From positions 13,950 through 77,949 of the forward strand of contig JAJTED010000003.1 of the NCBI GenBank assembly GCA_021300535.1: a stretch of 64,000 nt of DNA, written 5' to 3'. Numbering within the stretch: position 1 is the first letter of the stretch; each line of letters starts with the position of its first letter. A model generated the notes under the pieces. It did no database searches and had not been told where the DNA came from. It saw only the letters and a list, made by a program, of their open reading frames with translations. Shown piece by piece: positions 9,573 through 28,616 of this stretch. The position numbers were made by a program, and so were the translations under genes. Origin of the DNA: Planctomycetaceae bacterium (GTDB taxonomy: Bacteria > Planctomycetota > Planctomycetia > Pirellulales > UBA1268).

Positions 9573-9574
9573 AG

Positions 9575-12538: not shown

Positions 12539-12563
12539 TGTCGGCTTACCTGACCATCAAAGA

Positions 12564-12610
12564 GCCACCCGACCGAGTTCCGAGAAGACCGGTCGGGTGG
12601 TTTTGTTTTT
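12564..12610 (+). terminator. Intrinsic terminator
   Basis: ccacccgaccg / cggtcgggtgg stem followed by ttttgttttt. Confidence 0.7.
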
Positions 12611-12627
12611 GCTGCTGGTCGCCGCGC

Positions 12628-12906: not shown

Positions 12907-12941
12907 GGTGCCTGCGATCCCGTATGTGTTCGCTTTTGAGG

Positions 12942-13230
12942 GCGACTCAAAAAGCGACTCAAAACCCGACTCACTCTCTGCCCGCAGGAGGTCGCAGGGC
13001 ACCGCACCGACAAAACGGCATACCCATCAAAAGAGCAGGCCGCAGAACGACTTGCGTCATCCTGCGGCCTGATGCGATCTCTTGCGAAAAGTGGCGTAGC
13101 TCCCCGAGTAGGATTCGTCACAACCGCTGTTTTCTTTGTGAATAAACGGGGATCGGCAAGAAAGTGACTCAAAAAACGACTCACTCGGTAGAGTCGGGAA
13201 GTCCGCAGGGAGCTGCAGGAGGCCGCATGC
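12942..13230. mobile_element. Complete attP-like junction: triple arm, phased boxes, tRNA core (13100-13117), double arm, phased boxes
   Basis: (g/c)cgactca at 12942/12954/12966; TGCG at 13053/63/73/83; ctccccgagtaggattcg; gtgactca-aaaa-acgactca at 13164. Confidence 0.85.
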
Positions 13231-13278
13231 TGGTGACGGTAGAATGTAGAGATGAAATTGCTGGCTGAGGAAACTGCC

Positions 13279-13596
13279 ATGATCGCGTCCCGTGTAATCG
13301 ATGAACTCAAGGAACGACTGTCGGCGGTCTACGGCGACCGCCTGTACGCGGTTGTCCTGTTCGGCTCCGAAGCTCGGGGAAATGCCGGGCCAGACAGCGA
13401 CATCGACGTCTTGGCAGTTCTCGAGACTCTGGCCGGCGACTACGGTGAGGAATTGGAGCGGGGACTTGCGGCGGTGTATCCGATCGCCCTGCGGCTTGGC
13501 CGCCGCGTGAGCGTGAAACCGCTGGCACGAGAGGAGTATGATCGCGGCGATAGCCCATTGCTCCGCGAGGTGCGTCGCTCAGGCGTGGCGGCATGA
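13279..13596 (+). CDS. MNT (minimal nucleotidyltransferase) antitoxin
   Basis: FGSEARGNAGPDSDID is the GS-x10-DxD motif; overlaps the HEPN start (ATGA). Confidence 0.9.
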   Translation: MIASRVIDELKERLSAVYGDRLYAVVLFGSEARGNAGPDSDIDVLAVLETLAGDYGEELERGLAAVYPIALRLGRRVSVKPLAREEYDRGDSPLLREVRRSGVAA

Positions 13597-13976
13597 ACGA
13601 GTTCATCCGCAGTCAATGGGCAAAGTCCAAGCGTTCGCTTGCTGCGGCTGAGGTGATCTTCGAGACCGATCCGGACTCAGCAGCATCGAGGGCTTACTAC
13701 GCTGCGTTTCATGGTGTGACCGCGGTCCTCGCAGGACGCGGCATGGAATTCACGAAGCACACGGCGGTGCGGGCGGCCCTGCATCGGGATCTCATCCAGT
13801 CTGGCGCGATCTCTGCGGATCTCGGTCGTGATTACGACTTCTTGCTCGATCTCCGCGAGACCGCCGATTATGGCGGAGTTGCCGAGGCATCCCTGGCGAG
13901 TGCGACAAAGGCGATCGAAAAGGCAAGGAAGATCCTGGCCTCGATCGAGCCACTTTTGCCCGATAGCGCCGCCTGA
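13593..13976 (+). CDS. HEPN domain protein (UPF0332/COG1895-like)
   Basis: AASRAYYAAFH, KHTAV, LRETADY. Confidence 0.9.
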   Translation: MNEFIRSQWAKSKRSLAAAEVIFETDPDSAASRAYYAAFHGVTAVLAGRGMEFTKHTAVRAALHRDLIQSGAISADLGRDYDFLLDLRETADYGGVAEASLASATKAIEKARKILASIEPLLPDSAA

Positions 13977-14031
13977 AAAACGGTGCTGCATTCGGCTCAG
14001 TGCGAGCCGGTGCGGCCCCCTGCATAAGAAG

Positions 14032-14150
14032 CTCCCCGAGTAGGATGCGTAACATCCGCCGTTATCTCCGAGAAAAGACATGGGTCGGCGACAAAGCGAC
14101 TTAAAAAACGACTCACGTTCCAGTCCATAGGAGGACGCATGACCTCGCAC
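14032..14150. mobile_element. att junction (tRNA core plus type B arms)
   Basis: ctccccgagtaggat at 14032; gcgactta-aaaa-acgactca at 14096. Confidence 0.88.
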
Positions 14151-14271
14151 CAGGCCCCCGGGCGGTGTTCGACAAAGGGCTGCGGCAGACGAACCCCCAC
14201 CCCGGCATCTGCCCAGCAATCACGCCACGCGGAGCCGGGCTCCGAGACCGCAGCACGGTACACTCGAACGT

Positions 14272-14332
14272 CAATGACCATGCCCCCATCCACGTCCATG
14301 TTCGCCGGGGCGGGCCTCATCGATGACCACCT
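14272..14332 (+). pseudogene. DUF4160 remnant (collapsed by deletions)
   Basis: caatgaccatgcccccatccacgtccatgttcgc and cctcatcgatgaccacct match 26752-26785 and 26881-26898. Confidence 0.75.
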
Positions 14333-14596
14333 TGTCAGTCGGCGCGCATAACCGGCCAGTGATCGGCGCCTGATCCCGGCCGTCATCACGGTGCATCCCG
14401 ACCCACAGATCCTCCAGCAGCGTTCCCGCTGGTCGCCCGCTGAACGAAGCCACCAGGTGATTAATTACGACATCCCGACGGCATGCATCCGATCAACGGA
14501 TTTTAGCGAATCCACCGGGTAGTTTCCCTGCACCGGCACCATCGGCGGCGGCCGTAGGCGCACCATTGTGATGCGTTTGTCTCGAGGAGAGCCGGT

Positions 14597-17428
14597 ATGA
14601 ATCGCGGAAGCAAAGATCGATACGGAGGTTGGAGACGCCGGTGTGTCGGCCTTGTTTGCGGACTGGTCTGGATCTGCCTCCCGGCACAGTCCCACGCCAT
14701 CTGTGGTCTCGATGCGGCAGCCTTCGATCAAGTCCGCGATGTCGACGACCTCGACGCCCGGCAGGCGTGGGCGCGGCAGGTTACGCGGCAGGGGGGCGCG
14801 TCGTGCGTCGTCTGCCATGTGGCCGACTATAGTCCCCGGAATCGGTACGGAACCGCGATCAACATGCTGGTGACCGGTTACGACCGGGAAAATTCCGCCC
14901 GCAAGCGCGAGGCGGGGCGGCGGGTCAACGACATTCCGGCCGATCCGTCGCTCCCCAACTCACCGACCTTCGGCGAACTAATCCGCCGCGGCCTGCCGCC
15001 TGCCGCCGATCTCGCGGCCAACCGTGCCGCGATCCAAAACCTCCCGGCCGATCCGCCCCAGGAGGTCACGGTCGAGCAGGCCCGCGAACTGGTGTGGCAG
15101 GCGGAGGAGAAATCGGATTATGCGATCCTCCAGCTCAGCCGGACGCCCGACGTGAGCCCGGAAGTCGCGGCCGTGCTTGCCGGGTTTCGGGGCGAGATGT
15201 TGATCCTGGGGCTGCGGTCGCTTTCGCCGGAGGTCGCCCAGGCGCTCGGAAATAGCCGGGCGGCCACGGTCTGGCTGCACTCGGTCACGGCGGTCACTCC
15301 CGAGGCGGCCGCGGCCATCGCGGAGGTGCCGGGCCATCTGGTGCTCTCCGGCCTGGTGGAACTCGAGTCGGTGCCGCTGGCGCGGAAACTGGCCGGGCGA
15401 CCGGCGGCGTTGTCGCTCCCCTACCTGAAAAAGATCGGGCCCGAGGTCGCCGCGGCGCTGGCGGAGGCCCCCCGCGGCCTGACACTGGCCGCCCTGGCCG
15501 ATGTGCCGGTGGAGGTTCAGGAGGCGCTCGCCAAGACCGCCACATCCCTCTCGTTGCCGAGCCTTAAGTCGTTGGACTCGCTGCCGCTCACCAGGAAACT
15601 CGCCGCCGGCTATGCATCGTCGGTCCTGCTACCGGGCATCCGGGCGCTGTCCGTGGAACAGGCGGAGGTGATCGCCGCGGTGGATCGTGTTTTCTTCCTG
15701 GGAGGCACCTTCCTGCCGCTGTCCGTGATGTCCGAGGAAGTCGCGACCGTGTTCGCGAAGCGTCCGGCGGCGGGCCGGCTGGCGCTCGGGGCTGGGTCGA
15801 TCGCCGATCCGGCCTTCAAGATCCTGGTCGAGTCTCCCGTGCGCATCGAGTTGCTGGACACGGCCTCATTCAGTGCCGAACAGGTGCGGATCATGGCCGC
15901 GGCGGTGGATCGCGTTCCGGGCGGCCCAGCCGGGACGCGCTCGAAATTCAACGTGCCGATGGTGACGACGCTCGACTCCGCCCTGCTGGCCGAGACGCTG
16001 CTGCGATCCTCGGACGGTCTTTTCGGGGTGACGAGCATCTCGCCCGCGGTGGCCGAGGCGCTGGGCCGCAATCCGGAAGCGGCGGCCGGCAAGCCGAACG
16101 CCGGGCTGAACTTTCCCAGCCTCGAGGAACTCAGCCCCGAGACGGCCCGGCTGCTCATGAACCGGCGTTGGAACGGGATCTCGCTGCCGGCGCTACGGGA
16201 TGCGAAGCCGGAGACCGTCCGCAGCCTCGTGTGTCAGGCTTCGTGTGTGACGTTGGGCCTCACGGCCATCACGCCCGAAGTGGCTGCCGCGTTCGGCGAA
16301 ATGGCCAGCGATACCTTCAATTTGGGAGGCGGTACCCTTGCGTTTCCCTGCCTGTCCGAACTTTCCCCGGAGGCCGCCCGGGTGCTGGTGGCGGCGCTGA
16401 ACCGCGGAAAGGAGGTGCCGACGTGGGGCGGTCTCGACCGGACGCCGCAATTATTCATCGGCGGACGTGGTCTGGCGGGCATAGCTCCGCCGTTGACCCC
16501 GGCACTGGCTCGTGAACTGGCGCAGTATCGGGGCCGGCTCTCGATCGCCGGCCTGCGGGGGGAGCTTTCGCCGGAGGCGGCCGCCGCGTTGCAGGCGTAT
16601 CGCGGCCCGTTCATCGATCTCTCCGGCCCCGCGATCGACAGGCCGTCGCCCGAAACGGCGGCGGAACTGGCCAAGATCCCCGTGAAGCTCGACCTGCCGC
16701 TCCGGGTGCTCGACTCGGTGCCGCTGGCCGAGAAGCTCGCCGGTCAAAGCAGTATGTCGCTCAACGACCTGACCGTGCTCTCCGACGAAGCGGCCAAGGC
16801 ACTGGCGAGGCACGAGCGTGACCTGTCCCTGAACGGCCTGACCACGCTCTCTGCCGAAGCCGCACAGGCGCTGGCGCGGCACCAGGCCCTTGGCCTGCGG
16901 CTCAACGGCCTGACCACGCTCTCCGAAGAGGCGGCCAAGGCATTGGCGCAGTACAAGGGCTTCCTGTCGCTGAACGGCCTGACCAAGCTGCCTGATGACG
17001 CGGCCGAGGCATTGGCGCAGCACAAGGGCAGCCTGGTCCTCAACGGCCTGACCACGTTGTCTGCTGACGCGGCCCAGGCCTTGGGGCAGCATCAGGGCGA
17101 TTTGTCCCTCGCCGGCCTGACCAGGCTCTCGGCCGAGGCGACCAAAGCACTCGCTGCCGCCGATAAGTGGTCCGGCTTTCTTCCTCGGGTCGCCGCGCTC
17201 GACTCCCCGGATGCGGTCGCCGTCGCCGAAGCCCTCGCCACGAAGAAAGGCCCGCTGAATCTCCCCAGCCTCAGGAAAATCTCTCCCAAGACGCTCACGG
17301 CCCTGATCCAGAAGGGAGACGTCGAAATCCCGCTCATCGAGACGCTCGAACTGATCCCCGAGCCGGACGGTAGCGGCACCGACGACTTCGTGATCCCCGA
17401 GGGCTTCCGGCAGCGGCGGAAGCGGTGA
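14597..17428 (+). CDS. Secreted leucine-rich-repeat-like protein with N-terminal CxxCH
   Basis: Signal-like N-terminus, SCVVCH, many approximately 24-aa repeats LSLNGLTTLSxEAAxALAxH. Confidence 0.75.
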   Translation: MNRGSKDRYGGWRRRCVGLVCGLVWICLPAQSHAICGLDAAAFDQVRDVDDLDARQAWARQVTRQGGASCVVCHVADYSPRNRYGTAINMLVTGYDRENSARKREAGRRVNDIPADPSLPNSPTFGELIRRGLPPAADLAANRAAIQNLPADPPQEVTVEQARELVWQAEEKSDYAILQLSRTPDVSPEVAAVLAGFRGEMLILGLRSLSPEVAQALGNSRAATVWLHSVTAVTPEAAAAIAEVPGHLVLSGLVELESVPLARKLAGRPAALSLPYLKKIGPEVAAALAEAPRGLTLAALADVPVEVQEALAKTATSLSLPSLKSLDSLPLTRKLAAGYASSVLLPGIRALSVEQAEVIAAVDRVFFLGGTFLPLSVMSEEVATVFAKRPAAGRLALGAGSIADPAFKILVESPVRIELLDTASFSAEQVRIMAAAVDRVPGGPAGTRSKFNVPMVTTLDSALLAETLLRSSDGLFGVTSISPAVAEALGRNPEAAAGKPNAGLNFPSLEELSPETARLLMNRRWNGISLPALRDAKPETVRSLVCQASCVTLGLTAITPEVAAAFGEMASDTFNLGGGTLAFPCLSELSPEAARVLVAALNRGKEVPTWGGLDRTPQLFIGGRGLAGIAPPLTPALARELAQYRGRLSIAGLRGELSPEAAAALQAYRGPFIDLSGPAIDRPSPETAAELAKIPVKLDLPLRVLDSVPLAEKLAGQSSMSLNDLTVLSDEAAKALARHERDLSLNGLTTLSAEAAQALARHQALGLRLNGLTTLSEEAAKALAQYKGFLSLNGLTKLPDDAAEALAQHKGSLVLNGLTTLSADAAQALGQHQGDLSLAGLTRLSAEATKALAAADKWSGFLPRVAALDSPDAVAVAEALATKKGPLNLPSLRKISPKTLTALIQKGDVEIPLIETLELIPEPDGSGTDDFVIPEGFRQRRKR

Positions 17429-17515
17429 CTGGACCGCGCCGCCGTTGCTCTGAATCGCCGGCTCAAGGTGGAGTTGCGTTGACCGTTCGTCGGTCTGGCT
17501 CTGTCAGCGGAAAAG

Positions 17516-17640
17516 CTCCCCGAGTAGGAACAGTTCGAATCGCTGTTTTCTGGGGGAATGCCGTAAAACCGGCTCGAACGTGACGTAAAAAGCGACGTAA
17601 GCCCGAAGTACGCCGGGACGGGCACCGCCCGGCAGGGAGC
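17516..17640. mobile_element. att junction (tRNA core plus type C arms)
   Basis: ctccccgagtagga at 17516; gtgacgta-aaaa-gcgacgta at 17580. Confidence 0.88.
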
Positions 17641-17976
17641 ACGCTGGGGCTCGAAACCGCTTCCGTCACGAGTTGCCCGTGATCGACATCCACAGCCTCT
17701 GACCCCTCCGGACGCGAGGCATTACCGAAGCCGCCATGGGGGCGGTCGGGAGAGACTCTACGCCGACGCCAGAAAACCGCCACCAAAGGGAGGAAGGCAA
17801 GCGTTCCGGAAACCGCCCCCGGGAGCCCGAACGGCTTTCCAGCCGACGCGAGAGTCGCTCGCCAGCCGGGAAATCGTTGCGGAGGTGCCGTTGACCGGGC
17901 TATCCTTCTATCCCTTGTGAAAGGCTCGGCAATCTATCGGAAGGTATCATACTGATCCGTTCTCGAGGATCAGGCA

Positions 17977-19095
17977 GTGCGTTTCAACCGGCGATTTCCT
18001 CTACTCTCAGGCCAGACGTTCTGGATCGCCCACGCCTGTTTTTGGCTGACCGCGTTCGCTGGCGCGATGATCGTGATCCGGGCGTTCAAGCCGGCCCTGC
18101 CGGACGCAGCGTGGTTCGTCGGCATGCGGGTGGTGGCGGCCTGCCTGATCACGGCAGCCGTGCGGATGGCCGCCAAGAGCTCGCCGCTGCTCGAGCGGTT
18201 GGGGATTTCCAAGATCGGGCTGACGGTGGGGGGGCCGCTGGCCGGCGCGGTCGTGATGACCCTCGCGTTCATGGTCTACGGCACGCTCTCGGGAGGCTCT
18301 CCGCTGACGATCGACATCTCCGCCGGCGCTCCCAACCGGCTCGGCCTCGCCGCCCGGTTTCTCCTCGATGTGATCCTGCTCGGCACATGGTCGGCGGCCT
18401 ACTTCGGCTCCCACCTGCTCCGCGACCAGCGGGCAGCGGAACTGCGCGCCTTCGAGGCCGAAGCCCTCGCCGCCCGCAACGAGCTCAACCACCTGCAGGC
18501 CCAGATCAGCCCGCACTTTCTCTTCAATTCGCTGAACACGATCCTCGCCTGCAAGCAATCGCCCGACGACATCGAGGTGATCACGCAGTCGCTGGCGAAG
18601 TACCTGCGGTTCATCCTCCGCCCCGTCGCCACGCTCGAGCCGCTAGGCCGGGAGATGGACGCCCTCGAGGATTACCTCACGATCCAATCGTTCCGGTTCG
18701 GCGACCAACTCTCCTGCCGGATCGACTGCGACACCGACATCCGCCGCATTCCGGTGCTGCCCGCCATGATCCAGCCGCTCGTGGAAAACGCGCTCAAGTA
18801 CGGACGCCACGCCGACGATCAGCCGCTGGAGGTGACAGTGCGTGCCCGCCGCGATCACGACAAGCTCTTCATCGAGGTCGCCAACACGGGCCACTGGGTG
18901 CCCGCAGACCAGGCCCAGTCGACCAACACGGGCCTCCACACGCTCCGCCGCAGGCTGCTCATCCATGGCGGCCCTGAAGCCACCGTCACCATGTCGGAAC
19001 ACGACGGCTGGGTGCAGGTCGTCATCCAGATTCCCCTTACGGCGGAGTATGCTCTCCCCTCCGTCGCGCCGGAGCCCACGGAGATTGCCGGATGA
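17977..19095 (+). CDS. LytS/YehU-type sensor histidine kinase
   Basis: TM segments, LQAQISPHFLFNSLN, IQPLVENALKYG. Confidence 0.9.
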   Translation: MRFNRRFPLLSGQTFWIAHACFWLTAFAGAMIVIRAFKPALPDAAWFVGMRVVAACLITAAVRMAAKSSPLLERLGISKIGLTVGGPLAGAVVMTLAFMVYGTLSGGSPLTIDISAGAPNRLGLAARFLLDVILLGTWSAAYFGSHLLRDQRAAELRAFEAEALAARNELNHLQAQISPHFLFNSLNTILACKQSPDDIEVITQSLAKYLRFILRPVATLEPLGREMDALEDYLTIQSFRFGDQLSCRIDCDTDIRRIPVLPAMIQPLVENALKYGRHADDQPLEVTVRARRDHDKLFIEVANTGHWVPADQAQSTNTGLHTLRRRLLIHGGPEATVTMSEHDGWVQVVIQIPLTAEYALPSVAPEPTEIAG

Positions 19096-19871
19096 TCACT
19101 GCCCTGCTCGTCGACGACGAACCCAAGGCGATCGACCGCCTCTCCGAGATGCTCGAAGCGGTCGAATCGATCGACGTGATCGGCCGTGCGAGCAGCGTCG
19201 ACGAAGCCGAGAGATTTCTCCGGGGCAGGGCTCCGGACGTCGTGTTTCTCGACATCACGATGCCTGGCCGGCTCGGTGTCGACCTCCTCGGCAGCATCCC
19301 CCAGGGTACGGCGGTGGTCTTCGTGACGGCCCGTGAGGGCTACGCGGTCGAGGCGTTCCGATCCGGAGCCGTCGACTACGTGCTCAAGCCGTTCGACCAC
19401 GACCGCCTCGCGATCACGGTGGAGCGGCTTGAAAAGCGGTTCGCCGCCAACGAGGGCCGGGGCACGGGCGAGCCGGCTGCGGCAGACCTCGGCGGCGACC
19501 GGACCAAAGCCCGGGAAATCTCCGGCGACGAGGGGCAGGCGGTGCGGCTCGCGAGCGGCCGCGGCGCCGGTTTCGTCGTGGTGCCCTACGCCACCATTGC
19601 TTGGATCGAGGCCGTGCAAAACTACACGCGGGTCCAGATCATCGGGGAACAGCTGACGGTGGTGCGCCGCACGATGCAGGAGTGGGAGGCGATATTGCCC
19701 CCGGCGTTCGCGCGGATCAGCCGCTCGCTGATCGTGCAGGTTCCGATGATCCGCTCCACGCAGTGGCAGTCGCGCGACCAGATGCTCGTCTTCTTCGCCG
19801 GGCTCGACGAGCCGCTACCGATCGGCCGCACGCCGATGGCCCGTCTCAAGGATCTCTTGCGGCTCTCCTGA
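19092..19871 (+). CDS. LytTR-family response regulator
   Basis: LVDDE, FLDITMP, VTA, DYVLKP; C-terminal NYTRV, FARISRS. Confidence 0.9.
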   Translation: MITALLVDDEPKAIDRLSEMLEAVESIDVIGRASSVDEAERFLRGRAPDVVFLDITMPGRLGVDLLGSIPQGTAVVFVTAREGYAVEAFRSGAVDYVLKPFDHDRLAITVERLEKRFAANEGRGTGEPAAADLGGDRTKAREISGDEGQAVRLASGRGAGFVVVPYATIAWIEAVQNYTRVQIIGEQLTVVRRTMQEWEAILPPAFARISRSLIVQVPMIRSTQWQSRDQMLVFFAGLDEPLPIGRTPMARLKDLLRLS

Positions 19872-20021
19872 GGCGTTCCAGCCTTCGGCCGCCGCCTCGG
19901 GATGGAGCCGCAGTCGTGATCGCACGTCGTCATCACCCGCCGATGCAGAGCAGGCGGAGAGGAGCAGGCCCTTGATGGCGACCTGCTCCCCTTGCGTTGG
20001 AATCACGTTGGCGGGTTGGTG

Positions 20022-21932
20022 TCAGACCTGCTTGCGACGGCGGAACACGACATAGCCGCCACAGGCCAGACCGGCGAGGGCCATGGCCCACGTTGAAGGC
20101 TCGGGCACCGCGACGAAGTTGAGCATCACGTCCTGCCCGGCGAGCGAGGTCGTGAAGGAGCCTCGCGCCGTGGGCGAGAGCGAGTTGCCCTGCGAGTCGA
20201 GGAGTGAGCCGCCGAGGGCGAGGTTCGACAGGTTGCTGGTCGTACCGCCCGAGAGGTCGTAGACCATCCAGGAACGGTTGACGTTCCAGAACGCATTCGT
20301 CCAGTCGACCGAACTGCCCGCGCCGTTGAACGAGAGGGCGAGCGTCGTCGAACCCGAGAACGTGAGGTTGCCCGCGGGGAGGATGATCTGGTCGTAGTTC
20401 GAGCCGGCGCCGCCCGTCGTATTGGCGTTCAGCTCCCAGTTCACGACCGCGCCAGCCTCGTAGGTGAGGTTGCCGCTGAAGGTCTGGGCTCCCGGGGAGT
20501 TGCCCGGGGAGTGGGTGCCGATGATCGTGGCGTTGCCACCCACCGTGCCCGTGCCGCTCAGGCTCGCGACCAATGCCACATTCAGGCCGCCTGCGATCGA
20601 GCCGTTGAGCGCGAGTTCGCCGTCGCTGACGTTCGTGGCGCCCGAAAACGTGTTCGCCCCGGCGAGTTGCAGGGTACCCCCGCCGACCTTCGAGAAGCCG
20701 CCCGAACCGGAGATGCCGCCGGAGTAGGTCGTGCTCTGGCCGTTGCCGCCGGCCGTGAGCGTGCTCGAGCCGAGGGCTACGTCCAACGAGCCGGCGAGCG
20801 AGCCGATCGTCTCGTTGCCGCCGAGCGCGAACACGGCGCCGGCGGTGCCGGTGACCGCCGACGAGTCGGAGAGCAGGTTCGCCGCCGCGAGCGAGAGCCG
20901 TCCAGCGCTCACCGTCGTCGTTCCCGTGTAGCTGCTCGCAGCCGAGAGCGTAAACGTGCCGCTGCCCACCTTCGTGAAGCCGCCGCTGCCCGTGATCGAG
21001 CCGGCGTAGGACGTCGAGTTGGCGTTGCCCGCCGTAAGCGTGGCGCCGGAGGCGATATCGATCGTGCCGCCGGATCCGGCGAGCGAGGCCACGGTGTCGC
21101 TGCCGCCGATCGAGAGGCGGCCGGTGTTGACTGTCAGCGAGGCCGTGTCGGCGAGCGTGTTGGCCGAGGTCGTGGCGACCGTGCCCCCTCCGACGACGAT
21201 CGCCGTCGAGGCGAGCGTGACGCCGTTCGCCGCCGTGAAGGCACCCGAGTTGACGGTCGTCGTGCCGGCCCATAACTGGCTGGCGTTCACCTGCACCGCC
21301 GTGTTGCGACCGCCGGCGACGGTGAAGTCGACGTTGGCCTGCGTGGCGTTGGGACCGAGGGCGGTGTTTAGCGTGAGATTCGTGGTGGTGCCCGTGTCGC
21401 TTCCGTAGACCACGTAATCCTTGCTGTTGTCGTTGTAGATGGGCCCGCTCAGGATCAGACTGCCCTTGACGGGGTTGAGTTGGATGTCAGAGGCGCCGTC
21501 CGAACCGCCCGACAGGTCCATGTTCACAGTCTGGGTGAACGAGCTGTTGTTCTCGATCCGCGTCTTGAAGCCGATGCCGCCGCCGTTGCTTTGCGAAAGC
21601 GTACGGGACACGGTGAACGACGAGTCCCAGAAGATGTCGTTTACCTGCCGCCAATCACCCCAGTTGTAGTTCAGCCCGGTGACGTTCGAGTTTTGGTTTT
21701 GGCTGAACCTGAGGCTGTTGCCATAGCCCCACGAGGGCAGCGTGTTGCCCTGCCAGTTGCCGGAGTTGCTGAAGTTGCTGGTGTTTGCACCATCGTTCCC
21801 GACCCACACCAGGTCGGCCGCCGCGGCAAACGGCGGCAGCGCTACGATCAACGCGAGCAAGCTCACAGCTTTGAGGGTGAGCATCGGCATTAGGCGAGCG
21901 AGCGAGCGGACTGCGAAGGAGTGGTTTTTCAT
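20022..21932 (-). CDS. Autotransporter-associated beta-strand repeat protein with PEP-CTERM
   Basis: Signal peptide; repeats FTKVGSGTFTL..SYTGTTTVSAG; HSPGNSPG; VPEPST, TM segment, RRRK. Confidence 0.9.
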   Translation of the reverse strand: MKNHSFAVRSLARLMPMLTLKAVSLLALIVALPPFAAAADLVWVGNDGANTSNFSNSGNWQGNTLPSWGYGNSLRFSQNQNSNVTGLNYNWGDWRQVNDIFWDSSFTVSRTLSQSNGGGIGFKTRIENNSSFTQTVNMDLSGGSDGASDIQLNPVKGSLILSGPIYNDNSKDYVVYGSDTGTTTNLTLNTALGPNATQANVDFTVAGGRNTAVQVNASQLWAGTTTVNSGAFTAANGVTLASTAIVVGGGTVATTSANTLADTASLTVNTGRLSIGGSDTVASLAGSGGTIDIASGATLTAGNANSTSYAGSITGSGGFTKVGSGTFTLSAASSYTGTTTVSAGRLSLAAANLLSDSSAVTGTAGAVFALGGNETIGSLAGSLDVALGSSTLTAGGNGQSTTYSGGISGSGGFSKVGGGTLQLAGANTFSGATNVSDGELALNGSIAGGLNVALVASLSGTGTVGGNATIIGTHSPGNSPGAQTFSGNLTYEAGAVVNWELNANTTGGAGSNYDQIILPAGNLTFSGSTTLALSFNGAGSSVDWTNAFWNVNRSWMVYDLSGGTTSNLSNLALGGSLLDSQGNSLSPTARGSFTTSLAGQDVMLNFVAVPEPSTWAMALAGLACGGYVVFRRRKQV

Positions 21933-22018
21933 GGCACTGCTGTGGGGGGGGCACCCCGATGGGGGCCCCTTGAAAATAATCCGTTTCCGCCAGAAATCAA
22001 CGATCCGGCCGAAAAAGT

Positions 22019-22092
22019 GACGAATCGGGATTGGGTAGGGACGAATCGGGCGCGCCCCTGGGACGAATCGGGATTGGGTAGGGACGAATCGG
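22019..22092. promoter_or_regulatory. Four direct repeats GACGAATCGG (period 21/22/21), probable LytTR operator
   Basis: Copies at 22019, 22040, 22062, 22083, upstream of the PEP-CTERM gene. Confidence 0.7.
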
Positions 22093-22099
22093 CCGCGCG

Positions 22100-22555
22100 T
22101 CAGGCGACGCGCCGAGGTGCGCCAGGCTCTGCCGGATCGGAGCCGGCGTTGAGCCGGAAGATCAGCAGCGGCACCTCCATCACCTTCTCATGGTGGAAGG
22201 CATGTCCATACAAGCCCTCCTCGCCGAGGCACTCACCATGGTCCGCGGTGACCACCACCGTCGTCGGGCGTGCGCGCGCCGCGAAGCAGGCCAGCAGGTC
22301 GGCCCCTTGCTCAGCCAGCTCATCGCGTCGCCTCCGCGCTGAGCACGGACGGCGGCGACCCGGCACTGGAGCGCCGTGCTCTCCACCCGCACGCCGTCGG
22401 CCGTCAACTGCGTGCCTGCCCGAGCGAGAAACGACTCGGGACGCCGGAGGTGCTCGATCACCTCGAAGCAGGTGATCACCCGCCATCCGCCGTCGACGCT
22501 CCGCAGCTCCTCGCAGTCGTCGACGGTGAAGGCGATCCCTGCGGCGGCGAATCGT
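22100..22555 (-). pseudogene. Collapsed remnant of the methyltransferase + sulfatase pair
   Basis: Fragments CFEVIEHLRRPESFLARAG and RPTTVVVTADHGECLGEEGLYGH match the genes at 1720-3548. Confidence 0.85.
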
Positions 22556-22696
22556 CGGGCCGCCTCCTGTCTCTCCCGCCCGGGGCCCGCCGAACGACTG
22601 GGCAGAGCTCGTGCAGGTCACCTTCAAAAACGACGAGAGGCAGAAGGTTTTGCAACCCCCTGCCTCCTGGTGCCACTCTAGACATGAGTGGCGTAG

Positions 22697-22815
22697 CTCC
22701 CCGAGTAGGATCACGCACGACTGCGTTTTCCTGCTGGAAACCGGGGAATGGCGTAGGAAGGCGACGCGGAATCCGACGCAGTGGGGACTTCGCAGGGAGC
22801 CGCATGGGGCCGCAG
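22697..22815. mobile_element. att junction (tRNA core plus type A arms)
   Basis: ctccccgagtaggat at 22697; gcgacgcg-gaat-ccgacgca at 22761; CGCA at 22791/22801/22811. Confidence 0.88.
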
Positions 22816-22864
22816 GCTTGTGGCGGTAGAATGAAACTCACAACTGCTGTCCAAGGAAAATCCC

Positions 22865-23059
22865 GTGATCGCGTCCCGTGTGCTCGACGAACTCAAGGAA
22901 CGGCTGTCGGCAGCCTACGGCGAACGCCTGCACGCGGTTGTCCTCTTCGGCTCCGAAGCCCGCGGGGATGCAAGACCGGATAGCGACATCGACGTCCTCG
23001 TCGTTCTCGAGACTCTGACCGGTGACTACGGCGAAGAACTAGAGCGGGGACTTGCGGCG
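22865..23059 (+). pseudogene. 3'-truncated MNT antitoxin
   Basis: Matches the 13279 paralog up to ELERGLAA, then diverges; no HEPN follows. Confidence 0.8.
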
Positions 23060-23096
23060 CGAGAAGCTGTTTCGGAAGCGAGGGCGTTGTATGAGG

Positions 23097-23438
23097 ATGG
23101 CGAAGCGTTCGGTATGCCCGGTTGCCTGTGCGCTGGATCTCCTGGGTGACAAGTGGACGCTGCTCGTCGTGCGGGACATGGCCTGTGGCAAGACGCTCTT
23201 CAAGGAGTTCTCCGCATCCCCTGAGCGGATCGCCTCGAACATCCTGTCCGATCGGCTGCAACGCCTCGTCCGCTCTGGATTGGCCGAGTCTTTCAGCCCA
23301 ACGCCAGCGACTGGCTGGAACGGCTATCGCCTGACCCCAAAGGGCAAGTCACTGCTGCCCATCCTCGGAGTGCTCCGAGACTGGGGCCTTGGGCACATCA
23401 AGGGCACCGAGGCCCGGATGAAGCCCGTCATCTGGTGA
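23097..23438 (+). CDS. HxlR-family winged-helix transcriptional regulator
   Basis: RSVCPVACALDLLGDKWTLLVVRD, NILSDRL, YRLTPKG. Confidence 0.88.
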   Translation: MAKRSVCPVACALDLLGDKWTLLVVRDMACGKTLFKEFSASPERIASNILSDRLQRLVRSGLAESFSPTPATGWNGYRLTPKGKSLLPILGVLRDWGLGHIKGTEARMKPVIW

Positions 23439-23510
23439 TGCCAAGGTCAAAAAAACCTAACCTCTCGGATGGATCCAGAAATGTGGAGAACATCAAGAGA
23501 GACGAAACCC

Positions 23511-25028
23511 ATGCAGAGACTCATCTCGGTCGCCCTCGCCGCTGTGCTCATGCACGCTGGGTCGGCCTCCGCGCAGGTCGCCCGCTTCGAGGCCTTGAGC
23601 AATCTTCCGTTCGCGGAGAACCGGCCCACAGCGGAGAGCGCACAGACCCTGCGCGACGAGCTGCTGTTCCAGCGGGCGACGCAGACGTATCTCTGGGCCC
23701 TGCCGTTGATCAACACACTCGGGATGAAGGTCGGCTCGGAAAAGGTCTTCGGCGCCGGTTACAACGTCCTGCCGGTCTGGAAGAAACGCCTCGACTCGAA
23801 GACCCGGATAACGACCCCCAATTCCGATGTCATCTATGCCATGGGCTACGTCGACCTCGGCAAAGATGGCCCGCTGGTGTTCGAGGCTCCGCCCAACCTG
23901 CAGGGCATCCTGCTTGATGCCTGGCAGCGGCCCATTCCGGTGGATGGCGGCAGGTTCTTCGGGGACGTCGGCCTGCCGGGCCCCGACGGCGGCAAGGGCG
24001 GGAAGTTTCTGCTGCTACCGCCCGGCTACGAAGGAGCGGTGCCGGACGATTGTTTCGTCTACCGCTCGCCGACCAACAATGTGTTCGTTTTCCTGCGCGC
24101 GTTCTATCAAGATCCGAAAAATCTGACACCGGCCGTTGCGCTCATCGAACAGTCCAAAATCTATCCGCTCAACGGCCGGGAAACCGCGCGGCCGATGCAG
24201 TTTCCCGATGCCTCCGGTGTGCCGGTCAACATGCTGCCGATCAGCGACGGCAGCGCCTTCGATGCGCTCAAGAAACTGGTGGAGAGCGAGGGCACTGCTC
24301 TTGCCGACTCCGATTCGCTCGGCATGCTGGCATCGATCGGCATCGCCAAGGGCCGGCCCTTCGAGCCCGACGCCAAGACACGGGCGATCCTCGATCACGC
24401 CGCGCGGACGGCCTACAAGATGAGCCGCGTCATCGGCTTCGAGGAGGTGATCGCCGGCCGGTCCCTGCGGATCTATCCCGATCGCCGGTGGATCAACCCC
24501 ATGGCCGACGCGACCCCCGAGAATGTCGGGGGGCCTTTCGACCTCGGCTGGCGCAGGGTGGCCGGTGGCTATCTCGATCTCGACGCCCGGATCTGGTTTT
24601 TCACCAACTACTATTCGGTCAGTCCGGGCATGCTGTCGCAGACGCCCGGCCGGGGCGCCAAATACATGATCGTCTTTGTCGACAGCGAGGGCGCAAACCT
24701 CTCGGGCGGCAGCAGCTACCGGCTCCATCTGCCGCCTGACATCCCAGCCGCCAACTTCTGGTCGGTGACGCTGTACGAGGCCGAAAACGGCTCGGGACTC
24801 GCCAACGGCCAGCCGTTCCCGTCGCTCGGTTCGCGCGACACGCCGACGCAGAACGCCGACGGCAGCACGGACCTCTATCTGGGCCCCGAGACGCCCGCAG
24901 GCAAGGAGCGGAACTGGCTCGCGACGGTGCCTGGCAAGGGATATTTCGCCGTCCTTCGGCTCTACGGGCCGACTGAAGCTGCCATCGACAAGCGTTGGAA
25001 ACCCGGCGACATCGAGAAGGTGCCCTGA
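23511..25028 (+). CDS. DUF1254/DUF1214 domain secreted protein
   Basis: Signal peptide, QRATQTYLWALP, TPNSDVIY, FWSVTLY, LRLYGP. Confidence 0.88.
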   Translation: MQRLISVALAAVLMHAGSASAQVARFEALSNLPFAENRPTAESAQTLRDELLFQRATQTYLWALPLINTLGMKVGSEKVFGAGYNVLPVWKKRLDSKTRITTPNSDVIYAMGYVDLGKDGPLVFEAPPNLQGILLDAWQRPIPVDGGRFFGDVGLPGPDGGKGGKFLLLPPGYEGAVPDDCFVYRSPTNNVFVFLRAFYQDPKNLTPAVALIEQSKIYPLNGRETARPMQFPDASGVPVNMLPISDGSAFDALKKLVESEGTALADSDSLGMLASIGIAKGRPFEPDAKTRAILDHAARTAYKMSRVIGFEEVIAGRSLRIYPDRRWINPMADATPENVGGPFDLGWRRVAGGYLDLDARIWFFTNYYSVSPGMLSQTPGRGAKYMIVFVDSEGANLSGGSSYRLHLPPDIPAANFWSVTLYEAENGSGLANGQPFPSLGSRDTPTQNADGSTDLYLGPETPAGKERNWLATVPGKGYFAVLRLYGPTEAAIDKRWKPGDIEKVP

Positions 25029-25030
25029 CC

Positions 25031-26413
25031 ATGACACGACTTGCATCCCGGCTCGGCCCGCTCGAACTGGAGAATGGCTATCCCACCGATGCCACCGTCG
25101 TGAAGATCTTCGACGACATCGATTACCAGAGGGCGTGCCAGGCCTACCTCTGGGCCTTGCCGCTCATGGCGATGCAGCAATGGCAGAGCGAGCACCTCGC
25201 CAGGTTCGGCGCCGGAAAGCTCGACTATGTCGACTACATCACCTTCCAGGACAAGCTCGGCCTCCTCACGGCAAATGCCACGACGCCGTACATCATGGCG
25301 TTCCCCAACCTGCAGGAAACCGGTCCGCTGGTGTTCGAGGTTCCCGCCGGCCCCACGGCGGGCGGCTTCACCGATTTCTGGCAGCGGCCCATCACCGATT
25401 CGGGCCAAACCGGCCCCGACAAGGGCGCCGGCGGCCGGTATCTGATCCTCGGCCCCGACGACCCGGAACTGAAGCCGGAAGGGTATTACGTCTTCCGTTC
25501 GCCCACGGTGAACGTCTGGTCTGCCCACCGCGCGCTCGACCCCGATCCAGCCAAAGCCAAGCAGCTTATCGAGGGGTTGAAGATCTATCCCTTCAGCCAG
25601 CGTGAAAACCCCGCCCCAACCCGTCACGTTTCGCCGGCTGGTCGCCCGTGGAGCGGCGAACAACCGCGTGGCCTCGCCTACTGGGAAGGCCTGTCGAAGA
25701 TCATCCAGGAAGAACCCGTCCATGAGCGCGACAGGATCATGATGGGGATGCTGCAGCCCTTGGGAATCGAGAAGGGCAAGCCGTTCACGCCGACTGAACG
25801 GCAGAAGGAAATCCTCATCGACGCCGCGCAGACGGGGGAGGTGATGGCCCGGGCGATCGCCTATCGAAAGCGGTTCGAAGGCGCGAAAGTCTGGCCGGGC
25901 AGGAACTGGGAGCTGTCGCTGTTGCTTGCCGAGACCAATCAGGAAGCGCCGCACCATACGCAGTTGGATGAGCGCACGAGTTGGTTTTACGAAGCGGTCG
26001 GTGTCTCCGTGGGCATGATGGGCCGCGCCGTCGGAGTCGGGCAGGTCTACCTCGAGGCCGCGAAGGACAGCCAGGGCCACTGGCTCGATGGTGCCAAGAC
26101 CTATCGCCTCACGGTCCCGAAGGACGTTCCCGTAACGCAATTCTGGTCTGTCACCGTGTACGACAACGAGACCCGCTGCTTCGTGAAGTCGGGCGTTTCG
26201 CCGGATCGTTCATCGCGAGACGCCATCGTTACGAACGCCGACGGCTCCGTGGACCTCACGTTCGGCCCCGCGGTTCCCGCCGGCACGCCGGAGAGCAACT
26301 GGATCAAGACGCTCCCGGGCAAAGGCTGGTTCAGCTACTTCCGCCTCTACGGCCCGACCCAGACCTACTTCGACCGCTCCTGGGTGCTTTCGGACATCGA
26401 GGTGATCGAGTAG
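25031..26413 (+). CDS. DUF1254/DUF1214 domain protein
   Basis: QRACQAYLWALP, TANATTPY, FWSVTVYD, FRLYGP. Confidence 0.88.
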   Translation: MTRLASRLGPLELENGYPTDATVVKIFDDIDYQRACQAYLWALPLMAMQQWQSEHLARFGAGKLDYVDYITFQDKLGLLTANATTPYIMAFPNLQETGPLVFEVPAGPTAGGFTDFWQRPITDSGQTGPDKGAGGRYLILGPDDPELKPEGYYVFRSPTVNVWSAHRALDPDPAKAKQLIEGLKIYPFSQRENPAPTRHVSPAGRPWSGEQPRGLAYWEGLSKIIQEEPVHERDRIMMGMLQPLGIEKGKPFTPTERQKEILIDAAQTGEVMARAIAYRKRFEGAKVWPGRNWELSLLLAETNQEAPHHTQLDERTSWFYEAVGVSVGMMGRAVGVGQVYLEAAKDSQGHWLDGAKTYRLTVPKDVPVTQFWSVTVYDNETRCFVKSGVSPDRSSRDAIVTNADGSVDLTFGPAVPAGTPESNWIKTLPGKGWFSYFRLYGPTQTYFDRSWVLSDIEVIE

Positions 26414-26464
26414 TCCGGAATGGCCGCGGCGGGCTCGTAGGGCCACTTTCAAAAAGAGCCAAAG

Positions 26465-26585
26465 CTCCCCGAGTAGGATTCGTAACAACCGCCGCTTTCT
26501 TCGCGAAAAACTGGGTGTCGGTAAGAAAGCGACTCAAAAAACGACTCACTCCCCAATCCGCATGATCCCGCAGGAGGTCGCACCG
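26465..26585. mobile_element. att junction (tRNA core plus type B arms)
   Basis: ctccccgagtaggattcg at 26465; gcgactca-aaaa-acgactca at 26529; CGCA at 26559/69/79. Confidence 0.9.
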
Positions 26586-26704
26586 GGCCCCCGAGCGGTG
26601 TTCGGCAAAGGGCCGCGGCAGCGAACCCGCCTGCCCGGCACCCGCTGAGCAATCAGGCCACGGCGGGGAGGGCCTCCGAAACCGCGGTCATGTACACTTG
26701 AATG

Positions 26705-26938
26705 ATGCCGAAGATTTTCGAACAAGATGGCTATTCGTTTTTCTTCTACAGCAATGACCATGCCCCCATCCACGTCCATGTTCGCAGGGGCGGGGGCGAA
26801 GCGGTGTTCGTTGTCGAACCGGAAGTAGAACTGCGTGAATCAGTCGGGTTCAATGTAAGAGAACTTTCGCGAGCGGAGGACCTCATCGATGACCACCTCG
26901 AACTCATCAAACAAAAATGGGCCGAGCACCTTGGCTGA
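26705..26938 (+). CDS. DUF4160 family protein (putative toxin)
   Basis: MPKIFEQDGYSFFFYSNDHAPIHVHV...KWAEHLG. Confidence 0.88.
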   Translation: MPKIFEQDGYSFFFYSNDHAPIHVHVRRGGGEAVFVVEPEVELRESVGFNVRELSRAEDLIDDHLELIKQKWAEHLG

Positions 26939-27158
26939 CCGTGCCCTGAAGGCATGGCATGAGCGAGGAATGATCTTTATCAGGTTCGCCAGCGGCCATG
27001 AGGTGAGTTTTCCCACCAAGGGCAACCCGCGGCTGGAATCCGCTGCCGAGGAAGATGTGGGCCGTATCGAAATCTCTCCATTTGGGCTGCACTGGCCGAC
27101 GCTCGACGAAGACCTGTCGTTCACGGGAATCTTGGAGGGGCGTTGCGGTCAACGGTGA
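26931..27158 (+). CDS. DUF2442 family protein (putative antitoxin)
   Basis: PRLESA, GLHWPTLDEDLS; TTG start overlaps the DUF4160 stop. Confidence 0.85.
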   Translation: MADRALKAWHERGMIFIRFASGHEVSFPTKGNPRLESAAEEDVGRIEISPFGLHWPTLDEDLSFTGILEGRCGQR

Positions 27159-27409
27159 CCGTGCGGTTCATGTGAGGCAGCAGACTTTGGGTCCGCGCAG
27201 CCAGCCATAAGTGTTACGCGGTTCCGTAGAAACACGAGTGAGCGAGAGACACACTGCACGAAATGCTCTCGTGGCTTGCGGATCGCGGGCTTGATGGGCC
27301 TCCGCATCAACAAAATGGCTTCCCCATCAAAAGACCAAGCCGCAGAACGACTTGCGTCACTCTGCGGCTCCGTGCGATCTCGTGCGGCCACTTTCAAAAA
27401 GAGCCAAAA

Positions 27410-27530
27410 CTCCCCGAGTAGGATTGCGCACAATCGCGTTTTCCCGCCAGAAAAACAGGGCTTGCCGAGTCAAAGCGACGCAGAATCCGACGCAGCGTGA
27501 ACTTCGCACGGAGCCGCAGGAGGTCACACG
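27410..27530. mobile_element. att junction (tRNA core plus type A arms)
   Basis: TGCG at 27353/63/73/83; ctccccgagtaggatt at 27410; gcgacgca-gaat-ccgacgca at 27475. Confidence 0.9.
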
Positions 27531-27578
27531 CGGGTGGCGGTAGAATGAGTTCATCATCTGATCGTCAGGGAAACTGCC

Positions 27579-27896
27579 GTGAGAGCGTCCCGGATACTCG
27601 CTGAACTCAAGGAACGGCTTTCGGAGGCCTACGGCGAACGGCTGCACGCGGTTGTCCTCTTCGGTTCTGAAGCCCGAGGAGATGCCAGGCCGGATAGCGA
27701 CATCGACGTCGTGGCCGTTCTCGATAAATTGGCCGGCGACTACGGCGATGAACTGGAGAGAGGACTAGCAGCGGTGTATCCGGTTGCCCTACGAATCGGT
27801 CGTCGCGTCAGCGTGAAACCCCTGGCACGCGATGAGTATGAACAGGGCGACAGCCCGCTGCTTCGCGAGGTGCGTCGCTCGGGTGTTGCGGCATGA
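27579..27896 (+). CDS. MNT antitoxin
   Basis: FGSEARGDARPDSDID. Confidence 0.9.
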   Translation: MRASRILAELKERLSEAYGERLHAVVLFGSEARGDARPDSDIDVVAVLDKLAGDYGDELERGLAAVYPVALRIGRRVSVKPLARDEYEQGDSPLLREVRRSGVAA

Positions 27897-28276
27897 AGGA
27901 GTTCATCCGCAGTCAATGGATGAAGGCGATGCGTTCGCTTGCTGCCGCCGAGGCAACTCTCGACACCGACCCAGACTCAGCGGCATCACGAGCGTACTAT
28001 GCCGCGTTTCACGGGGTAACCGCAACGCTCGCGGGGCGAGGCATGGAATTCACGAAGCACACGGCGGTGCGGGCGGCCCTCCATCGGGATCTCATTCAGT
28101 CCGGTGCGCTCTCTGCGCATCTCGGTCGTGATTACGACTTCCTGCTCGATCTTCGCGAGACCGCCGACTACGGCGGCGTCGCCGAGGCGTCCCTCGCGAG
28201 TGCGACGAAGGCGATCGAGAAGGCGCGGGCGATCCTGGCCGCGCTCCAGCCTCTGTTGCCGGATGGCGCTGTCTGA
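27893..28276 (+). CDS. HEPN domain protein
   Basis: AASRAYYAAFH, LRETADY. Confidence 0.9.
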   Translation: MKEFIRSQWMKAMRSLAAAEATLDTDPDSAASRAYYAAFHGVTATLAGRGMEFTKHTAVRAALHRDLIQSGALSAHLGRDYDFLLDLRETADYGGVAEASLASATKAIEKARAILAALQPLLPDGAV

Positions 28277-28331
28277 AAGATGCCGCCTGGTGCGGCCCTA
28301 GGCGAGCGGGTGCGGCACGCTGCGAAGAAAG

Positions 28332-28455
28332 CTCCCCGAGTAGGAACAGTGCGAATCGTTGTTTTCGCGGAGAATACGGCAAAGCCGGCTTGGACGTGAC
28401 GTAAAAAGCGACGTAGGCCCGGAGTGCGCAGGGAACGGCACTACCCGGCAGGGAG
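28332..28455. mobile_element. att junction (tRNA core plus type C arms); distal end of the tRNA-proximal 9.5-kb unit
   Basis: ctccccgagtagga at 28332; gtgacgta-aaaa-gcgacgta at 28396. Confidence 0.9.
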
Positions 28456-28616
28456 CACCTTGGGGCTCGGTACCGCCTACGTCACGGGAACCTAGTCAGC
28501 GCGTGTACTCATCCAGAAGAACCCCTATCCGATGGGCCGAGGACGATGCGTTTTCGGGAATCGCCAGCCCGTGGGCCGGCAACGACCGCGTCGTCCCGGG
28601 CTATTCCCGGGCTATC

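Follow-up and report, generated by a model that had tools for sequence, protein, structure and literature searches.

The window analyzed here, a 64,000-nt stretch of the genome of an uncultured planctomycete (Planctomycetaceae bacterium, assembly GCA_021300535.1, contig JAJTED010000003.1, positions 13,950 to 77,949), contains eight copies of a 14-bp core that are the junctions between small cassettes, arrayed in tandem as they are when site-specific integration at a tRNA gene, here tRNA-Asn, has occurred again and again. To the right of every core lies an 8-mer direct-repeat pair at a nearly fixed distance, and comparison with related elements makes the designation of this pair as an integrase arm site well supported. 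Taken as a whole, we consider it probable that the regions around the cores are the arms of lambda-type attachment (att) sites in a tRNA-Asn cassette array, that helically phased boxes in the same arms are accessory-protein sites, and that the cassettes were moved in trans.

Cores, target gene and the 8-mer pair

The last 14 nt of the tRNA-Asn gene (37877-37890 in plus-strand coordinates) are the common core, CTCCCCGAGTAGGA, which stands in reverse complement at 37877. Eight exact copies were counted in the window, seven in the array and that at 37877. As is characteristic of lambda-type att sites, the core is common to the element sites and the bacterial target, with seven identical array copies and an eighth that is degenerate. 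The features on which the following paragraphs are based are:

37877-37948, minus strand: tRNA-Asn(gtt), the bacterial target attB (ARAGORN, Rfam, sequence)
13100 (13100 to 13113), 14032, 17516, 22697, 26465, 27410 and 28332, plus strand: exact 14-bp cores (sequence)
6622-6635, plus strand: degenerate core copy (sequence)
13164-13183, plus strand: 8-mer direct-repeat pair, period 12, at core +64/+76, proposed arm-type integrase sites of the P arm (sequence)
6686-6704, 14096-14115, 17580-17599, 22761-22780, 26529-26548, 27475-27494 and 28396-28415, plus strand: further 8-mer pairs
13128-13147, plus strand: TTTTC-N5-6-GAA(AA) inverted repeat at +30 to +45 of the core, within +28 to +47, found in all eight copies

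All core copies have the orientation of the tRNA-Asn gene and lie 3' of it. A search of the whole source assembly (G000; 4.0 Mb, 67% G+C, 86% complete) found exact copies of the core confined to the contig of the window, and the Rfam scan matched nothing besides tRNA. The units delimited by successive cores span 0.9-9.5 kb and carry MNT-HEPN pairs, DUF4160-DUF2442 pairs, a LytTR two-component pair, an HxlR regulator with DUF1254/DUF1214 proteins, a 943-amino acid (aa) repeat protein and sulfur-metabolism genes. Neither a recombinase nor a replication module was detected by Pfam scans of the 30 open reading frames (ORFs) between 4554 and 37763, and no integrase was matched when the whole contig was searched with PF00589. 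Of the 47 other genus genomes, 37 contain the exact core, often in arrays at ~0.9-kb spacing; outside the genus it was found in 1 of 32 genomes. For comparison with the window, 21 stretches from 18 genus genomes (loci L008-L030) were used, the relatives being labelled Planctomycetia or Planctomycetota metagenome-assembled genomes (MAGs). Together they yielded 57 distinct core copies, of which 15 lie at real tRNA genes and the other 42 do not; these copies are related by descent and the motif counts that follow are not independent events.

The first-pass annotation of this DNA had proposed that an 8-mer pair stands 64 bp after the start of each of the eight cores, and each coordinate that it named was verified, including the offset of +65 for the pair at 27475 relative to the core at 27410. 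The only other departure in the window is the 6686 copy, in which the period is 11 rather than 12. The window pairs are of three sequence types, GCGACTCA, GCGACGCA and GTGACGTA, and these three arm families keep identical geometry while their spacers differ. A loose form of the pair pattern had 26 matches genome-wide, 10 of which are the pairs and the triple (described below) of the window array. Across the 42 non-tRNA cores the pair (GAC..GAC at +66/+78) is exactly at +64/+76 in 32 copies and within 1 bp of this in 36, and the states observed were as follows:

Exactly at +64/+76: 32
1-base shift or shortening: 4
Point change in one box: 4
One box deleted: 1
Unrelated 8-mer, GGCCCTAA, at exactly +64/+76: 1

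The information content per column was then calculated from 39 in-register copies (effective number 34):

Core: 1.95 bits
+14 to +35: 0.91 bits
+36 to +63: 0.66 bits
Box 1 of the pair: 1.38 bits
The 4 bases between the boxes: 1.27 bits
Box 2 of the pair: 1.13 bits
Beyond the pair: 0.53 bits

The claim that spacing is kept despite sequence drift is upheld by these values, with the pair at 1.1-1.4 bits versus 0.66 bits in the 36-63 spacer and with an unrelated 8-mer retained at the same offset. Conservation in the arms has no three-base periodicity (0.75/0.80/0.75 bits in the three phases), and in the alignment both the pair and the phased boxes are kept better than the spacers, the opposite of which would have counted against the proposal. 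The type of pair is also uncoupled from the cargo, as MNT-HEPN cassettes carry TCA and GCA types alike, and the first cassette gene starts at variable distances, from +106 to +565. At the core at position 8191 of locus L017 (G044:C133) the pair is a hybrid that joins a TCA-type box 1 to a GCA-type box 2, which suggests recombination between arm families. The best-conserved stretch of the spacer between core and pair is the TTTTC-N5-6-GAA(AA) repeat, which may be a host-factor or core-type site. A plus-strand terminator (hairpin and T run) was considered at +14 to +35, but the terminator scan made no call there.

The integrase family and its probable arm sites

An intact integrase is not encoded in the array; the window does contain what remains of an integrase-bearing element immediately left of the core at 13100:

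12311-12535, plus strand: integrase C-terminal remnant (35% identical over 85 aa to the G030 integrase, used as tblastn query)
12628-12936, minus strand: DUF167 (YggU) ORF, with the integrase remnant on one side and the long P' arm on the other (Pfam E 1.3e-20)
12942-12973, plus strand: 8-mer triple, period 12, at 12942/12954/12966 (-158/-146/-134 of core 13100)

The triple has no core 64 bp ahead of it and is followed by CGCA at 12983/12993/13003. The order along the DNA is integrase remnant, a hairpin at about 12565-12610, the DUF167 ORF, the 8-mer triple, three CGCA boxes, a second hairpin, four TGCG boxes and the core at 13100. We assign the region of the triple to the long P' arm of an integrase-bearing element that has decayed. 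The same layout, with a DUF167 ORF in the equivalent position, is found in G023 (L028), where an intact 383-aa integrase lies beside a real tRNA-Asn. In G030 an integrase that is 40% identical stands at tRNA-Asn and heads a 20-kb element with a type I restriction gene, and integrase-less cassettes follow this element in the array. Integrase-less, att-flanked units beside an autonomous element, the arrangement expected of cis-mobilizable elements and accretion, are thus represented by the window cassettes and the G030 array. Two further matches were noted on another contig of the source assembly, a second integrase C-terminal fragment (G000:C125:16275-16564, minus strand; 38% identity over 79 aa) with a GCGACGCG pair just downstream, and a core with one mismatch (G000:C125:11280).

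Relatives of the integrase were identified in 33 of 60 genus genomes (E<=1e-20). A tRNA gene faces the integrase 3' end in 9 of 29 downstream stretches (Asn 2, Glu 4, Arg 2, Ser 1). When genome contigs were searched more widely with a single integrase protein as query, this arrangement was seen at 9 of 10 loci, which belong to other Planctomycetota and to organisms outside the phylum. Both the G023 and the G030 integrase have a PF00589 match in Pfam and, in addition, a SAM-like domain. In the AlphaFold model of the integrase, for which the mean pLDDT is 82, the N-terminus forms a sheet of three strands followed by a helix (strands 3-6, 12-16 and 25-30, helix 34-52), at a pLDDT of 84-90 in this part, and the best Foldseek matches of the model were to full-length lambda Int (1z1b) over 372 aligned columns. 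Based on this fold and these matches, the integrase of the relatives is modeled as a heterobivalent, lambda-type enzyme with an arm-binding domain.

All nine family integrases with a tRNA within 900 bp have an 8-mer pair of 12-bp period between the integrase gene (int) and the tRNA, and the 8-mers are element-specific (GCGACTCA, GGCCCTAA, CGGCACAG, CCGGACCA, ACTTCCCT and others). Including other Planctomycetota, the 12-bp-period repeat is present in 27 of 41 family loci, a count in which L065 duplicates L034 and one or two matches may be due to chance. The element in G030 is the sole integrase-bearing element with both ends in the sequence analyzed, and it is there that the +64 rule for the P arm was checked: GGCCCTAA is at +64/+76 (P) and GGCCCT(AA/GC) at -153/-141 (P'), an unusual 8-mer that is thus common to the two arms. 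Arm repeats on both arms are accordingly seen in two places, as the pairs of the G030 element and as the triple at -158 plus the pair at +64 around core 13100 of the window. For the elements at tRNA-Glu, tRNA-Ser and tRNA-Arg, no repeat of the terminal 11-14 nt of the tRNA was found in the fetched stretches.

Two kinds of variation connect the 8-mers to the integrase. Where long P' arms resemble one another in all else, they differ in the triple, of which all three copies switch together, being GCGACTCA in G023 and the window, GCGACGCA in G086 and GCGCCGCA in L064. Among seven aligned integrases, the ratio of identity in the N-domain to that in the rest of the protein was 1.43, 1.17 and 1.12 for pairs that share CGGCACA and have different tRNA targets, versus 0.80 and 0.78 for pairs that share the tRNA target and not the 8-mer. 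Integrases with GCGACGCG have H or Y before a conserved LG where others have R. The L064 integrase, 84% identical to that of G023, has the different triple GCGCCGCA, and its N-terminus is missing or replaced. The proposal that these are att sites with integrase arm sites is therefore supported by comparison on several counts: the core is the 3' end of tRNA-Asn, lambda-like integrases converge on tRNA genes, the 12-bp-period pairs are element-specific, the 8-mers change in concert within and between arms, and N-domain similarity follows the 8-mer type.

Two related observations were made elsewhere. In L070, a Tepidisphaeraceae MAG record from another class of the phylum, an integrase that is 40% identical targets tRNA-Val, and its pair, GCGACGCAGAATCCGACGCAG, is letter-identical to the GCA-type pair of window cassettes 22697 and 27410. 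At G000:C47:42886-42930 and 43040-43090 there is a fourfold ACGACGCA-like repeat of period 11-12, ~110 bp from what by eye is a tRNA 3'-half lookalike, where ARAGORN calls no tRNA; this is probably another att site of the integrase family near a contig end.

Phased boxes and a candidate accessory protein

Boxes recurring once per helical turn were assigned on both sides of the cores, together with hairpins on the left:

22791-22814, plus strand: right-arm boxes, CGCA/GGCA every 10 bp, at about +94/+104/+114
6715-6738, 13204-13227, 14136-14149, 17621-17634, 26559-26582, 27505-27518 and 28427-28450, plus strand: further right-arm boxes
13053-13086, plus strand: left-arm boxes, TGCG or its TGCC variant, every 10 bp
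6592-6615, 14001-14024, 22651-22674, 27353-27386 and 28291-28324, plus strand: further left-arm boxes
13036-13071, 27337-27370 and 22636-22667, minus strand: terminator-like hairpins within left arms, each a stem of 14-16 pairs with a T run after it

The 10-bp recurrence of CGCA/GGCA right of the pair, also claimed in the earlier annotation, is present in all eight copies, as CGCA, GGCA or TGCA at +93 to +95, +104/105 and +114/115 (three boxes in five copies, two in three), and every position named for TGCG-like boxes left of six cores is TGCG or a one-letter variant (CGCG, GGCG, TGCA or TGCC). In the comparison set, where distances of 4 to 25 bp were counted, the spacing of CGCA in 42 right arms was 10 bp in 41 cases, 20 bp in 21 and other in 4 (62 of 66 in phase), and that of TGCG in 57 left arms was 10 bp in 61, 20 bp in 34 and other in 4 (95 of 99). 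Box density is ~2 per arm versus 0.26-0.34 per 61 nt elsewhere in the window (~8-fold), and the motif in the opposite orientation is nearly absent from the arms. The right-box consensus is YCGCAGG and the left is its complement, CCTGCGR, while in GTA-type arms the right boxes read GGCA and the left ones TGCC. The TGCG array begins 7 bp from the core. Left-arm conservation was 1.52 versus 0.90 bits, a difference that is biased upward as 23 of the 57 arms were picked for having G-C in register.

The two ends of a cassette have matching box types in all 18 classifiable cases (15 CGCA/TGCG and 3 GGCA/TGCC), versus 14 of 22 when the two arms compared lie on either side of one core and are therefore parts of neighboring cassettes. 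Based on this uniformity within cassettes, which is weaker across cores, the boxes are a property of the cassette, and it seems that the same factor would read both cassette ends. The left-arm hairpins are on the tRNA's strand and downstream of the core, with one compensatory change in G023, and it is plausible that such a hairpin serves as the tRNA terminator when an element adjoins the tRNA.

A candidate for the protein that occupies the boxes is an HTH_17-like (helix-turn-helix) ORF that overlaps the start of int in G023 and has relatives preceding int in G030, G045, G005 and L066, for a total of five loci. Xis, BldC and RdfS form head-to-tail filaments with one DNA turn per subunit, according to one study (PMC11963761), and the 10-bp phasing of the boxes taken with such filaments fits a recombination directionality factor (RDF). 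Several findings weigh against this assignment and against parts of the overall reading. The HTH_17 match has an E value of 4.7e-5 and 24 bits versus a Pfam cut-off of 27, and tblastn of G000 listed no Xis-like ORF at E<=0.01. Among elements with integrases 35-45% identical and Xis-like proteins 27-41% identical, the boxes remain TGCG/CGCA; being near-invariant, they are better fitted by a host factor or by weak sequence specificity than by a co-evolving RDF. They occupy both arms, a left box array is lacking at window cores 17516 and 26465 of the eight, two boxes form the hairpin stem in the left arms of 13100, 27410 and 22697, and the 18/18 concordance of box type leans on the three GGCA/TGCC cassettes alone. 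As for the integrase, no full-length family member was found in G000 (0 matches at E<=1e-20 in an assembly that is 86% complete) and none on the contig, the comparison of N-domain with 8-mer covers seven proteins, and integrase-less cassettes carry the +64 pair only, without distal P' arm sites. Of the first-pass suggestion that the boxes are directionality-factor arrays, then, the 10-bp phasing stands and the HTH ORF before int at five loci favors it, whereas the near-invariance of the boxes, their presence on both arms and their partial location in a hairpin do not. Directionality-factor sites are a plausible designation; that the boxes would bind an accessory bending protein, either an RDF or a host factor, is our best guess, held with less than even confidence.

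Proposed mechanism, alternatives and relation to known systems

In the mechanism that we propose, small cassettes would have been inserted serially by site-specific recombination into the 3' end of tRNA-Asn in this uncultured planctomycete. The catalytic and core-binding domains of a lambda-type integrase would act on the 14-bp core, its N-terminal three-stranded-sheet domain would bind the 8-mer pair 64-83 bp right of the core (the P arm), and in integrase-bearing elements the N-domain would also bind a second pair or triple ~155 bp to the left (the long P' arm). A small accessory protein, most likely the excisionase-like HTH protein encoded upstream of int and otherwise a host factor, would line up on the right CGCA and inverted left TGCG boxes, one helical turn apart, and bend the arms. 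Integrase-less cassettes, which keep the core, the P-arm pair and both box arrays, would be moved in trans. The sequence comparisons establish the layout of the sites, how well it is conserved and the joint changes of the 8-mers, and the model gives the fold of the integrase; we infer both which protein binds which motif and that cassette movement continues. The system in G000 itself looks orphaned because only an integrase remnant is left.

Evidence on mobility comes mainly from one cassette (26465-27423, plus strand; a DUF4160 and DUF2442 pair bounded by two cores, identified with Pfam and blastn). Between cores 26465 and 27410 it is 99.4% identical over 963 bp (window 26463-27425) to a copy in another species of the genus (L019, G047:C3), while the flanks are 66-84% identical and the high identity stops at the two cores. 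The G047 copy adjoins the tRNA and has a different left neighbor. This suggests, from sequence comparison, that the exchange of this cassette was recent and horizontal. Other window cassettes recur in many genomes at 75-93% identity and in different orders, which argues for the exchange of whole core-to-core units between genomes. The contigs of four public runs were compared at 90% likeness. Contig joints were found between homologous arms, such as from 13171 to 14103 (skipping 931) and from 14016 to 28321; these joints are within repeated arm sequence, possibly of related organisms, and show neither excision nor circles nor empty sites.

Alternative explanations were weighed for the motifs. 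It is unlikely, in our estimation, that the roles are the reverse of those proposed, with the phased boxes being the integrase arm-type sites and the 8-mer pair binding an excisionase-like or other element-specific factor. The P and P' arm sites of lambda have inverted orientation on the two arms, and so here do the boxes, which are on both arms in opposite orientation and agree in type across all 18 pairs of cassette ends, and integrase-less cassettes have the 8-mer pair on one arm only. It is the 8-mers, though, that change with the integrase and track its N-domain, while the boxes barely change across integrases 35-45% identical; 8-mers are on both arms in integrase-bearing elements, and the TGCG array, at 7 bp from the core, is presumably too close for a bridging arm site. 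We regard as improbable that the array is a frozen pile of decayed elements whose motifs are functionless and shared by descent. The lack of an intact integrase in G000, the integrase remnant at 12311-12535, the core-less arm remnant at 9995-10076 and the mutated or deleted boxes in 6 of 42 copies would all fit such decay, but it would leave unexplained that motif columns outlast spacers across three sequence families, that the offset is retained for an unrelated 8-mer, that between species one cassette has 99.4% identity and its flanks 66-84%, with the drop located at the cores, and that neighbor order varies between genomes.

Another possibility, which we consider a degree less credible still, is that the pair is a relic of coding sequence, since an ORF can run through an att site and the 12-bp repeat would equal a 4-codon repeat, A-x-Q-N-P-x-Q, of the integrase tail. 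In G030 the integrase ORF does span the P' arm and core, and the arms read in that frame give ATQNPTQ-like strings homologous to AAQNPAQ of other integrase tails. That other family members have the homologous repeat inside the integrase C-terminal tail also counts against the overall reading, to the extent that part of the history was coding. A stop occurs before +90 in 17 of 42 copies, however, and in the GTA type inside each box; conservation lacks 3-base periodicity; and the G023-type integrase, the type closest to the window remnant, ends 550 bp before the core, yet the triple is kept. Within an element, moreover, both repeats have an identical codon as their variable triplet, a match that selection on the protein would not require and that points to selection on the DNA. 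The cassette arms, in short, are homologous to a coding repeat and are by these signs not coding now. The least likely of the alternatives is that the motifs are operators, promoters or terminators of the cassette genes. Antitoxins of toxin-antitoxin pairs often bind direct repeats, three left arms have strong minus-strand terminator-like hairpins that include two boxes, and a TAGAAT -10-like hexamer follows the boxes in MNT-HEPN cassettes. Against such a role, positions are fixed to the core and not to the genes (first gene at +106 to +565), one arm type can stand ahead of unrelated cargo and one kind of cargo behind different arm types, and the same motifs occur downstream of integrase genes with no gene after them.

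The reading of the regions as integrase att arms agrees with lambda attP and other heterobivalent sites in having a short core in common with attB, arm-type direct repeats tens of bp away on both arms (in integrase-bearing elements), a modeled N-terminal arm-binding domain in the integrase, a small excisionase-like gene that adjoins int and helically phased sites, here putative, for an accessory protein. Other sites of heterobivalent integrases are those of L5, P2 and Tn916. For the integrative and conjugative element (ICE) ICEMlSymR7A, five arm-type sites are described (PMC11963761). The planctomycete sites differ from the lambda type in the strict 12-bp period at +64, in having boxes on both arms with one array abutting the core, and in that many units are integrase-less with a partial arm set; they are known here from sequence. 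In the ssrA islands and cis-mobilizable elements of Dehalococcoides, serial integration at the 3' end of a small-RNA gene leaves direct repeats, some units keep att sites without an integration module, and accretion is the proposed route (PMC3146451). Tandem accretion at an RNA gene and integrase-less members are thus shared with those islands, whereas they have a CcrB-like serine recombinase and span many kb and the window has lambda-type tyrosine integrase sites with elaborate arms and several ~0.9-kb cassettes of one or two genes. Prochlorococcus tycheposons are similar in their tRNA-targeting tyrosine recombinases, stacked integrations, scattered partial tRNAs and adaptive or defense cargo, and differ in being 10-20 kb with their own integrase and often replication modules (10.1101/2020.12.28.424599), neither of which the window cassettes have. 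Integron arrays are alike in their co-oriented small cassettes, often with toxin-antitoxin pairs, and recombination sites at one chromosomal place; they differ in IntI, folded attC hairpins and an attI platform, versus tRNA-derived cores with lambda-type arms and a tRNA platform here. No PF00589 match was found on the contig and the array abuts a tRNA rather than an attI; the junctions are a 14-bp tRNA-derived core with asymmetric direct-repeat arms rather than attC sites, although no attC model was run. By defining features the array is neither a tycheposon nor an integron. It is a solid example of a familiar mechanism and not a new one, with lambda-type attP architecture in an unusually tidy integron-like setting.

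To our knowledge, att-site anatomy has been detailed for a handful of phage and ICE integrases, none of them from Planctomycetota. The natural variation in this family is an unusually clean map, in which the distance from core to arm is fixed, the repeats change in concert and the N-domain changes with them, and it predicts which part of the protein reads which DNA. This natural "mutagenesis" that assigns the 8-mers to the integrase N-domain, along with possible in-trans movement of sub-kilobase cassettes, is in our view the most interesting aspect of the array. If integrase-less cassettes do move in trans, they would constitute a tyrosine-integrase counterpart of integron-like gene stacking, and would help to explain the spread of small defense and toxin-antitoxin modules among uncultured freshwater planctomycetes. 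We speculate, as a possibility that we rate at well short of even, that the genus runs an integron-like gene-collecting platform at tRNA-Asn, in which cassettes with a reduced attP (the core, one pair at fixed +64 and two phased box arrays) are exchanged between species in trans by the integrases of larger elements, and at least three arm-site dialects (GCGACTCA, GCGACGCA, GTGACGTA, GGCCCTAA) match cassette to integrase. The cargo of such a platform would be toxin-antitoxin pairs, regulators and metabolic genes in sub-kilobase, integrase-less cassettes.

Some further features of the array are of note. At 9995-10076 there is a copy of a GTA-type right arm (+80 to +161) with no core and no 8-mer pair, fused behind a truncated HEPN ORF (9689-9958); it is a decayed junction within the 6622-13100 unit. 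The 943-aa ORF, at 14597-17428, is the cargo of one cassette; it has no Pfam match and has 69-bp (23-aa) tandem repeats at 16900-17165. The 9.5-kb unit that adjoins the tRNA (28332-37877) encodes cytochrome c, a pyridine-nucleotide-disulphide oxidoreductase, two rhodanese proteins, an MBL-fold protein, TauE and an outer-membrane channel. It starts with a GTA-type arm, its tRNA-side arm is without phased boxes, and this sulfur-metabolism block may have arrived as a cassette.

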